Below, piece by piece: positions 59,616-59,735 of a stretch of DNA of 64,000 nucleotides. Made by a program: the position numbers and the translations under genes. Where the stretch lies: NCBI GenBank assembly GCA_016716715.1, contig JADJVE010000006.1:129259-193258 (forward strand), read 5' to 3'. The notes under the pieces were generated by a model. It did not search any database, was not told where the DNA came from, and saw only the letters and a program-made list of their open reading frames with translations. The DNA comes from Acidobacteriota bacterium (GTDB lineage: Bacteria; Acidobacteriota; Thermoanaerobaculia; UBA5066). Position 1 is the stretch's first letter, and each line of letters opens with the position of its first letter.

Positions 59616-59643
59616 CCCGCACAGCGCGTGCGGGTTCCCGCAC
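59616..59643. promoter_or_regulatory. Second copy of the CCCGCAC-N5-GTGCGGG-N2-CCCGCAC candidate enhancer
   Basis: Same three-half-site architecture as 56851..56878, about 75 bp upstream of the second sigma-54 promoter. Confidence 0.5.
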
Positions 59644-59719
59644 GCCGGACGCCTCACCGCCGGGCCACGCACCCCTCGCAACGTGTTCCTGCGACGCCAC
59701 TTGACGCAATCCCGCGGGA

Positions 59720-59735
59720 TGGCTTGGGCTTTGCG
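59720..59735 (+). promoter_or_regulatory. Sigma-54 (-24/-12) promoter TGGCTTGGGCTTTGCG upstream of the porin–CYTH–transporter genes
   Basis: 15/16 identical to the promoter at 56941 and in the same register relative to the UAS. Confidence 0.55.

Follow-up and report, generated by a model that had tools for sequence, protein, structure and literature searches.

What controls transcription of the OprO/P-family porin gene is the question raised by this locus, which lies in a 64-kb stretch of Acidobacteriota DNA (the window). A preliminary description had placed at 59616-59735, upstream of the porin, a second copy of a cassette composed of an upstream activating sequence (UAS) and a sigma-54 promoter. 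It had argued that conservation of the cassette, including its internal spacing, reflected function rather than chance. Our analysis indicates that 59606-59734 is very probably an enhancer-dependent (sigma-54) promoter region for a unit comprising the porin, Y219, CYTH and DASS permease genes; from the sequence comparisons below, we put the probability of this reading at roughly 85%. All features are on the plus strand unless stated otherwise.

The cassette sits in the 280-bp gap between the stop codon of a pyrophosphatase gene (59520) and the ATG of the porin (59801), on the strand of the porin. UAS copy 2 (59606-59644) contains four alternating hexamer half-sites, GCGCGG-N4-CCGCAC-N5-GTGCGG-N4-CCGCAC, located at 59607-59612, 59617-59622, 59628-59633 and 59638-59643, respectively. 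They form two tandem 16-bp dyads with a centre-to-centre distance of 21 bp. The region first delimited does hold the cassette, but the true start is about 10 bp further upstream and the fourth half-site (59607-59612) had been missed. The sigma-54-type -24/-12 promoter element, TGGCTTGGGCTTTGC, is at 59720-59734, with GG (59721-59722) and GC (59733-59734) exactly 10 nt apart. As TGGCTTGGGCTTTGCG (59720-59735), the promoter matches 9 of the 12 specified positions of TGGCACG-N4-TTGCW. The porin ATG begins 67 nt after the GC doublet. Transcription would start at about 59745-59747, 11-13 nt past the GC, and the UAS midpoint is about 121 bp upstream of this predicted start site. The predicted 5' leader of the porin mRNA (59746-59800) includes a Shine-Dalgarno sequence, GGAG, and is nearly invariant in five relatives; no covariation support was found for a small hairpin in it. 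A third conserved block, ACTTGACGC (59699-59707, pattern A.TTG.C.C), precedes the -24 element by about 13-21 bp. Its columns are invariant in five aligned porin promoters, in which the surrounding spacer is divergent. Upstream of the cassette, an intrinsic terminator (59552-59592; a 12-bp stem with 9 G-C pairs, followed by 8 T) closes the operon of X582 and the pyrophosphatase. It divides this operon from the porin transcription unit and is kept in five Thermoanaerobaculia loci.

UAS copy 1 (56841-56879) is found directly 3' of the gene for an NtrC-family response regulator, and its first half-site overlaps the TGA stop codon of that gene. Its half-sites are GAGCGG (56842-56847), CCGCAC (56852-56857), GTGCGG (56863-56868) and CCGCAC (56873-56878). 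The corresponding -24/-12 element, TGGCTTGGGCCTTGC (56941-56955), ends 26 nt before the ATG of X582 and matches 10 of the same 12 specified positions; here the UAS midpoint is about 107 bp upstream of the predicted start site at about 56966-56968. The two copies are identical at 25 of 29 and 14 of 15 bases of the functional motifs, and the intervening spacers are unrelated, so the copies are not a duplicated DNA segment. The conserved spacing claimed in the preliminary description was borne out in part. The half-site spacers (N4/N5/N4) are identical in both copies, but UAS and promoter are 88 bp apart in copy 1 as against 102 bp in copy 2, and this 14-bp difference is a non-integral number of helical turns.

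The element was compared across 58 related loci, 674 kb in all, drawn from Thermoanaerobaculia, Holophagales and Proteobacteria. The UAS cores GCG, CGCA, TGCG and CGC, which make up 14 columns, do not vary among 48 distinct promoter sequences from orthologous loci. The N4 spacers within each dyad never vary and the central spacer is N5 or N6, a pattern that fits two dimer sites. Measured from the CGCA core to TGGC, 42 promoters have a distance of 98-102 bp, eight have 88-90 bp and one has 112 bp, so that the classes are separated by about one helical turn. The 39-bp UAS consensus is tGAGCGGanncCCGCACnnnnnGTGCGGnaTtCCGCaC, 100 ± 2 bp from TGGC. At the two positions after TGGCn, which the search pattern had left free, C occurs in 44 and G in 43 of 53 promoters, as in the canonical sigma-54 consensus. 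Most orthologous porin promoters with a UAS of their own have the -24/-12 element at the corresponding position. Among close relatives, the stretch that separates UAS from promoter changes freely, with the terminator, UAS, -24/-12 element and leader fixed; the half-sites upstream of the porin are conserved in orthologous intergenic regions, the comparison that the preliminary description had proposed. Loci in which the porin gene comes immediately after the pyrophosphatase gene (e.g. L006-L010, L016 and L031) have no second cassette. Neither window spacer contains an IHF-like site with two or fewer mismatches, and Holophagales orthologues have AT-rich spacers with one-mismatch IHF matches at fixed positions.

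The regulator encoded beside copy 1 (55497-56843) consists of a REC domain, a sigma-54 AAA+ domain (Pfam Sigma54_activat, E = 1.4e-58) with an intact GAFTGA motif, and an HTH_8 domain (E = 1.4e-12) at about residues 395-448. A UAS and promoter upstream of X582 are present in 32 of 34 loci with an adjacent regulator versus 2 of 16 without one, a co-occurrence confounded by phylogeny since the regulator loci are from Acidobacteriota and the others mostly from Proteobacteria. The likely cognate partner is a PAS-PAS histidine kinase (53583-55504; Pfam) with a conserved N-terminal domain. Compared with three orthologues, its gene has a 1-nt gap near 53990, an apparent frameshift which, if real, could impair signalling in the host organism. 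A search for the RpoN box was negative in the window plus the 58 loci, which amount to about 740 kb of scattered loci rather than whole genomes. That the activator has an intact GAFTGA motif hints only indirectly at an rpoN gene in the genome.

How bacterial enhancer-binding proteins work in general has been reviewed (PMC7175178). In the mechanism proposed for this locus, sigma-54 RNA polymerase would bind TGGCTTG-N4-TTGC (59720-59734) as a closed complex. The adjacent PAS kinase, on sensing its putative signal, would phosphorylate the regulator, which would bind as two dimers to the two tandem 16-bp dyads (GnGCGG-N4-CCGCAC), which are spaced two helical turns (21 bp) from centre to centre. 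The regulator would then assemble into an active AAA+ ring on the UAS and the DNA would loop, and ATP hydrolysis together with the GAFTGA loop would open the promoter. The same regulator would drive the second promoter region (56841-56955), in front of the exported TTM-fusion protein and the exported pyrophosphatase.

We propose, from gene context and motif conservation, that the regulator binds both UAS copies. Alternatively, the promoter may be real and the UAS bound by another protein, such as an enhancer-binding protein encoded elsewhere, a repressor or a co-regulator. Two loci (L019 and L042) retain the UAS without a directly adjacent regulator orthologue, and the regulator falls below the cut-off of every characterised NCBIfam equivalog, so its DNA specificity is not assignable from its family. 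In L042, however, the regulator gene lies some 1.5 kb further upstream. In addition, no other protein in the 64-kb window carries GAFTGA, and in practically every orthologue the stop codon of the regulator gene falls inside UAS copy 1. The recognition helix of the regulator, ARRTLYDR, is as invariant as the UAS cores, being nearly unchanged in 37 orthologues across the clades that share the UAS. We consider binding by another protein unlikely.

A second alternative, which we hold to be very improbable, is that the palindrome acts as a hairpin, either as a plus-strand terminator or attenuator or as part of a minus-strand small RNA. The 37-bp element is indeed an extended inverted repeat, and copy 1 sits after a stop codon and is followed by TTT. 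On the minus strand, 59544-59649 scored 34.8 bits with the Rfam family Collinsella-1, against a gathering score of 35. Against this, pairing in the 48 sequences equals the shuffled expectation (77.3% vs. 76.9%; covariation score 0.078 vs. 0.078), and the columns that vary break the pairing: column pair 21/27 is unpaired in 14 of 48 sequences and column pair 7/41 in 44 of 48. A strong terminator already precedes copy 2. The conserved UAS bases without compensatory change therefore point to a protein-binding site and not a hairpin. The Collinsella-1 RNA was rejected as a sub-threshold match whose alignment deletes 97 of 196 model positions and which does not recur in relatives; no Rfam family reached its gathering score in nine orthologous loci.

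The specificity of the motifs was assessed at several levels. In the window, TGGC-N7-TTGC has 3 matches versus 0.89 expected (at least 3 in 4 of 100 shuffles) and the central palindrome has 2 versus 0.76 expected (at least 2 in 20 of 100 shuffles). These in-window statistics of short patterns are weak by themselves and the enrichment is marginal. The third TGGC-N7-TTGC (19793-19807, minus strand) lies within a coding region without a UAS and was set aside as a chance match. The decisive test was a 39-bp weight matrix derived from other genomes. Trained without the window, the matrix gave 45.9 bits for copy 1 and 43.0 bits for copy 2, with 7.9 for the next best position in the window. Trained on distant Holophagales-type loci only, it gave 40.1 and 38.9 bits, respectively, whereas all other window positions (about 128,000) scored at most 8.5 and the maximum in 20 shuffled windows was 9.6. 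In the 58 loci, every match above 34 bits lay in front of X582 or the porin, in the orientation of the gene, with a matrix that included those sites, so that their own scores are circular. The remaining matches above the 12-bit threshold were a 21.7-bit site (L055) and two reverse-strand echoes next to true sites. The correctly spaced form of the UAS pattern is GCGNNNNNCCGCACNNNNNGTGCGGNNNNCCGC, the true spacing being GCG-N5-CCGCAC. A mis-spaced 19-base pattern (GCG-N6-CCGCAC), which serves only as a control, matched 99 unrelated metagenome contigs; none of the 99 matches adjoins homologues of these genes, and only two (L073 and L136) have a loose -24/-12-like match 80-118 bp downstream, neither with TGGC or TTGC. 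The idea that the motifs arose by chance in a genome of 71% G+C, or belong to a dispersed REP- or MITE-like family of palindromic repeats, is thus already effectively refuted, short-pattern enrichment and control hits notwithstanding, by matrix scores of 39-46 bits at the window sites and by the finding that each locus has exactly two sites, in front of the same two genes, in lineages whose regulator is only 75-80% identical to that of the window. The earlier argument for function over chance at the second cassette is upheld by these scores and by the invariant cores.

A sigma-54 promoter with tandem dyads recalls the NtrC enhancer at glnAp2 of E. coli and Salmonella, where two dyad sites are located on the same helix face, roughly 100-140 bp upstream of GG-N10-GC. 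The window locus is similar in having a REC-AAA+-HTH regulator and a dyad pair upstream of GG-N10-GC, as well as in the looping and ATP hydrolysis proposed here. The NtrC site is TGCACC-N5-GGTGCA with dyad centres about 32 bp apart. The window half-sites have a similar core, GCAC/GTGC, but the window dyad is GTGCGG-N4-CCGCAC (16 bp) with centres 21 bp apart. Moreover, the window regulator scores 336 bits against an NtrC equivalog cut-off of 559, and its putative target genes concern phosphorus rather than nitrogen. The closest solved relatives of the regulator are Aquifex aeolicus NtrC4 (4l4u, the best, E = 1.9e-92) and NtrC1 (1ny5, E = 3.2e-85), which have the full-length REC-AAA+-HTH architecture but come from a different phylum and have different target genes. 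In Salmonella, PgtA/PgtB/PgtC control pgtP, a case in which an NtrC-family response regulator governs uptake of phosphorylated compounds. The corresponding model (NCBIfam NF047793) matched the window regulator weakly and partially (173 bits vs. a cut-off of 650), mainly in REC, and the window gene set is different from that of the Pgt system.

The oprP and oprO genes of Pseudomonas aeruginosa encode porins that are induced in the course of phosphate acquisition, and have sigma-70 promoters with Pho boxes bound by the OmpR-family protein PhoB; OprO prefers pyrophosphate. The window porin belongs to the same Porin_O_P family but has a -24/-12 promoter and an enhancer, without a convincing Pho box. 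The best match to a Pho box (tandem CTGTCAT with an 11-bp period) in the porin intergenic region has mismatches at 6 of 14 positions, and a match with 4 mismatches upstream of X582 is not conserved. A Pho regulon promoter was rejected for lack of a convincing or conserved Pho box, as judged by the E. coli consensus, which may not apply to Acidobacteriota.

The first gene behind copy 1 (56981-58729) encodes X582, an exported protein of 582 amino acids. X582 has no Pfam match, and an alignment-profile search of PDB sequences was also empty. Its AlphaFold2 model has a pLDDT of about 90 for residues 30-315, and a Foldseek comparison of the model with the PDB returned CYTH/triphosphate-tunnel-metalloenzyme (TTM) structures with a probability of 1.0, in keeping with an N-terminal TTM fold; no fold was assigned to the C-terminal domain. 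The gene is followed by one for a family-I inorganic pyrophosphatase with a signal peptide (58753-59520; Pfam Pyrophosphatase, E = 3.6e-27). The first gene behind copy 2 encodes the porin, confirming what had been described there (59801-61246; signal peptide; Pfam Porin_O_P, E = 1.2e-30). Next is Y219 (61349-61942), a conserved 197-aa protein always paired with the CYTH gene, with synteny in more than 30 loci. Y219 gave no Pfam or PDB match, hhalign comparisons with CYTH and X582 profiles gave probabilities of at most 0.2%, and its single-sequence AlphaFold2 model was unusable (pLDDT 36). The cytoplasmic CYTH (triphosphate tunnel) protein (61971-62444; Pfam CYTH, E = 3.9e-15) and a DASS-family anion:sodium symporter (62506-64000; Pfam Na_sulph_symp, E = 2.8e-58), which runs off the end of the window, complete the series. 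No plus-strand terminator was found after the porin within the window, and the porin unit probably ends with the symporter.

The likely regulon would comprise the exported triphosphate-tunnel protein, the exported pyrophosphatase, the porin, the CYTH protein and the anion permease. Judging from these gene products, it probably serves to scavenge pyro-, tri- or polyphosphate together with other sources of phosphorus. Holophagales add a histidine phosphatase and a nuclease- or phospholipase-C-like enzyme to the gene set. Betaproteobacterial genomes (Rhodocyclales, Burkholderiales) carry the exported TTM family without the regulator and its sites.

The architecture of an enhancer with a -24/-12 promoter is textbook, and it is conserved across many Acidobacteriota. 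Our literature search found no description of this regulon or of sigma-54 control of an OprO/P porin. To our knowledge, almost nothing has been established about transcriptional regulation in Acidobacteriota, which are mostly uncultured. The data suggest that the OprO/P porin is under sigma-54 control in these bacteria, in contrast to PhoB control in Pseudomonas. As a tentative wider reading, somewhat less than evenly favoured, a dedicated sigma-54 two-component system, and not PhoR-PhoB, may control extracytoplasmic condensed-phosphate scavenging in Thermoanaerobaculia and Holophagales. The pathway would comprise the exported TTM-fold fusion protein, the exported family-I pyrophosphatase, the OprO/P porin, the cytoplasmic CYTH proteins and the DASS permease, and would represent an undescribed regulon with an undescribed family of exported TTM enzymes. 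If this wider reading is true, the fixed 100-bp enhancer geometry would offer a natural series for studying helical phasing. The UAS consensus and its spacing give an NtrC-family regulator of Acidobacteriota, so far uncharacterised, a cis-regulatory code that is precisely delimited and phylum-wide, one that links a conserved gene set resembling pyro-, tri- or polyphosphate scavenging and including an exported triphosphate-tunnel family without a Pfam model.

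The 280-bp gap between the pyrophosphatase stop (59520) and the porin ATG (59801) opens with a strong intrinsic terminator (59552-59592) and holds the second cassette. Its upstream activating sequence (UAS) consists of four alternating hexamers, GCGCGG (59607-59612), CCGCAC (59617-59622), GTGCGG (59628-59633) and CCGCAC (59638-59643). A G+C-rich spacer of 76 bp leads to the -24/-12 element TGGCTTGGGCTTTGC (59720-59734), which has a GG-to-GC spacing of exactly 10 nt and lies 66 nt before the porin ATG. The first copy is located 2.8 kb upstream, with half-sites GAGCGG (56842-56847), CCGCAC (56852-56857), GTGCGG (56863-56868) and CCGCAC (56873-56878). 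The first of these overlaps the TGA stop codon of the NtrC-family regulator gene (55497-56843), and the -24/-12 element TGGCTTGGGCCTTGC (56941-56955) ends 26 nt before the ATG of X582, a 582-aa exported protein. The copies are identical at 25/29 and 14/15 bases in the motifs only; because their inter-motif spacers are unrelated, a duplicated DNA segment is excluded.

Taken alone, the short patterns carry little weight as evidence. The window holds 3 matches to TGGC-N7-TTGC where 0.89 are expected (a count reached in 4 of 100 shuffles), and 2 to the central palindrome where 0.76 are expected (reached in 20 of 100 shuffles). One of the three TGGC-N7-TTGC matches, at 19793-19807 on the minus strand, is inside an 895-aa ORF and lacks a UAS. 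The evidence that decides the question of chance is comparative. X582 homologues were found, 23 of them were aligned, and 58 genomic loci (674 kb in total) were fetched from Thermoanaerobaculia, Holophagales and several Proteobacteria, with synteny established by tblastn. A 39-bp weight matrix trained with the window excluded gave the window sites 45.9 and 43.0 bits and the next best position 7.9 bits. With a matrix built from the distant Holophagales-type loci only, the sites scored 40.1 and 38.9 bits, the best other window position 8.5 bits, and the maximum over 20 shuffled windows was 9.6 bits. The preliminary description had argued for function rather than chance, and scores of 38.9-45.9 bits from matrices trained without the window, against at most 9.6 in shuffles, bear this out. 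When both strands of the 58 loci were scanned, matches above 34 bits stood only ahead of X582 or the porin, always oriented with the gene; the other matches above the 12-bit threshold were two reverse-strand echoes beside true sites (loci L002 and L008) and one 21.7-bit site (L055). Since these sites had gone into the matrix used for the scan, the scores they receive are circular; the near-absence of other matches is not. A metagenome scan employed a mis-spaced pattern (N6 vs. the true spacer N5) and serves as a negative control only. The third-best UAS-matrix match in the window (about 8 bits; 52315-52353, containing TGGCACGGCCTGTGCG) lies just upstream of a likely signal-peptidase start codon and is probably a chance match. 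Elsewhere in the window, 15045-15983 is highly repetitive: a degenerate GTCGGC/GTGGAC-type unit recurs in 18 overlapping copies, spaced 12 or 18 nt apart, and is followed by a tandem pair of 300-nt copies (15381-15680 and 15684-15983; 96% identity). This stretch probably belongs to a coding region with repeats.

Orthologous regions ahead of X582 and the porin carry the same four half-sites and TGGC-N7-TTGC. Comparison of these intergenic regions, suggested earlier as a check on the half-sites, showed that the cores GCG, CGCA, TGCG and CGC never change among 48 distinct UAS sequences aligned without gaps, whose consensus is tGAGCGGanncCCGCACnnnnnGTGCGGnaTtCCGCaC. Both N4 spacers also keep their length; the central one is N6 in four loci (L006, L007, L009 and L016) and N5 in the others. 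Because the N4 spacers are fixed and the central one varies, we infer that the UAS comprises two tandem 16-bp dyads (GnGCGG-N4-CCGCAC), each of which would bind one dimer; the dyad centres are separated by 21-22 bp (two helical turns). At the -24/-12 positions left free by the search pattern, the bases agree with the canonical sigma-54 consensus TGGCACG: the C following TGGCn is present in 44/53 and the G in 43/53.

The separation of UAS and promoter, counted between the CGCA core and the first base of TGGC, falls into three classes: 42 promoters have 98-102 bp (mode 100), 8 have 88-90 bp and one has 112 bp. All 8 promoters of the shorter class are Thermoanaerobaculia X582 promoters and include the first copy in the window. 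The distance classes differ by about one helical turn, which would be the signature expected if activator and polymerase need a defined helix face. The half-site-to-promoter spacing had been described as conserved; this is true of the orthologues, but the two window copies differ (88 bp in the first vs. 102 bp in the second).

In the porin intergenic region of five close relatives, the terminator, the UAS, an A.TTG.C.C block, the -24/-12 element and the whole leader are kept, and the UAS-to-promoter spacer is essentially unalignable. The X582 promoter has a similar footprint pattern. The third block precedes each -24 element by about 13-21 bp (59699-59707 and 56918-56928 in the window); porin promoters have an ACTTGAC-type version of it, and X582 promoters have AAGGACTAAGC. 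It could be a site for a bending protein or a second regulator. Its Holophagales equivalent, AATTAACC, is within AT-rich spacers with 1-mismatch matches to the IHF consensus at fixed positions; no IHF match with two or fewer mismatches was found in the window spacers of this 71%-G+C organism. The predicted porin 5' leader (59746-59800) is nearly invariant in five Thermoanaerobaculia genomes despite the divergent promoter spacer beside it, and no covariation support was found for its small hairpin GCCTCG/CGAGGC. The second cassette is absent where the porin directly follows the pyrophosphatase (L006-L010, L013, L016 and L031), which fits a single operon at these loci.

The palindromes of the UAS could also be read as a hairpin or structured RNA. 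One Rfam family, Collinsella-1, matched 59544-59649 on the minus strand just below threshold (34.8 bits vs. a gathering score of 35); the match joins the terminator hairpin and the UAS palindrome through an A-rich linker with half of the model deleted, and no family reached its gathering score in 9 orthologous loci. Over the 16 pairs possible in the extended palindrome, counted in 48 sequences, 77.3% of cells were paired vs. 76.9% after shuffling, and the covariation score was 0.078 in both cases. Since covariation is absent and variable columns disrupt the pairing, it is the sequence that is conserved and not the structure. The search for a Pho box gave no convincing match, the best being unconserved.

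Every sequence-level feature of a sigma-54 promoter and of an enhancer-binding-protein UAS was found. The element is classed as a probable NtrC/glnAp2-type enhancer-dependent promoter, with a dyad spacing and a distance between dyads that differ from those of NtrC sites. Enhancer-binding proteins bind a UAS as dimers, reach the promoter by DNA looping and assemble an AAA+ ring whose GAFTGA loop contacts sigma-54 (PMC7175178). The regulator contains REC, Sigma54_activat (E = 1.4e-58), AAA-lid and HTH_8 domains with an intact GAFTGA; no other protein of this kind is encoded in the 64-kb window. Among solved structures, the closest relative of the regulator is Aquifex NtrC4 (4l4u, E = 1.9e-92). 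The regulator scores under all NCBIfam equivalog cut-offs, those of AtoC, PrsR, NtrC, NtrX, GlrR and ZraR among them, and therefore represents an uncharacterised NtrC-family subfamily. UAS and promoter precede X582 in 32/34 loci with an adjacent regulator orthologue vs. 2/16 without one (Fisher p about 1e-8, the loci being phylogenetically non-independent); at one of the two exceptions, L042, the regulator gene sits further upstream. Among 37 orthologues the recognition helix ARRTLYDR shows almost no variation, in parallel with the invariant UAS cores. Together, these data suggest that the regulator binds the UAS. The neighbouring PAS-PAS kinase gene (53583-55504) has a 1-nt gap around 53989-53991 relative to L032, L002 and L027, where both parts are in one frame; it splits a conserved N-terminal domain (about 136 aa, frame 0) from PAS-PAS-HisKA-HATPase (frame 2). 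Either the gap is an error of sequencing or assembly, or the frameshift is genuine.

The conserved Acidobacteriota cluster reads kinase, regulator, X582, pyrophosphatase, (extra genes), porin, Y219, CYTH; in Proteobacteria, X582 and the pyrophosphatase are present without kinase and regulator genes. We propose that the first copy drives X582 (56981-58729) and the family-I pyrophosphatase (58753-59520), which is always paired with X582. Both carry signal peptides, that of the pyrophosphatase being clear and N-terminal; an exported soluble pyrophosphatase is unusual. X582, whose family is present in Acidobacteriota and Betaproteobacteria genomes, matched no Pfam domain. Its AlphaFold2 model, computed from an alignment of 23 sequences, has high confidence over residues 30-315 (pLDDT about 90), and this region matched CYTH/triphosphate-tunnel metalloenzymes in Foldseek (probability 1.0, E = 1e-6 to 1e-4), including 3sy3, AtTTM3 (5a5y), YgiF (5a60) and thiamine triphosphatase (3bhd). 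The N-terminal domain has a CYTH/triphosphate-tunnel fold. The C-terminal domain (about 340-530) is poorly modelled; it also makes up stand-alone proteins about 320 aa long, and in one protein (P0118) it is joined to a SixA-type histidine phosphatase.

The second copy is proposed to drive the OprO/P-family porin (Pfam Porin_O_P, E = 1.2e-30), Y219 and the CYTH protein. No plus-strand terminator was found after the porin. The unit probably also includes a DASS-family (Na_sulph_symp) anion permease (62506-64000), which follows CYTH on the same strand, runs past the window end and is possibly the inner-membrane transporter of the same pathway. Y219 (197 aa, 61349-61942; invariant P10 R11 E13 R15 ... 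E163 E165) is conserved and always encoded beside CYTH, both in Acidobacteriota and in Proteobacteria; it has no detectable relation to CYTH, X582 or any Pfam or PDB entry. Between the pyrophosphatase and the porin promoter, Holophagales and one other Acidobacteriota bin carry a gene for an exported histidine phosphatase (His_Phos_1), joined in Holophagales by a gene weakly like Zn-phospholipase C/P1 nuclease (locus L036, 8665-10076; locus L003, about 2990-3500).

The controlled genes share the theme of phosphate anhydride/ester hydrolysis and uptake. Because of this, they may form a regulon for phosphorus scavenging, with pyro-, tri- or polyphosphate as possible substrates; our confidence in this physiological role is about 0.4-0.5. 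The inserted phosphatase and phospholipase-C-like genes reinforce this theme. Pseudomonas oprO/oprP are controlled by PhoB through Pho boxes and sigma-70; the promoter here differs in type, being a -24/-12 (sigma-54-type) element with a UAS. Full-text literature searches returned no account of this regulon or of a sigma-54-controlled OprO/P porin. All functional statements are based on comparative genomics. The finding, of modest interest, is of value for its clean phylum-wide regulatory code and for the uncharacterised gene set that this code links.
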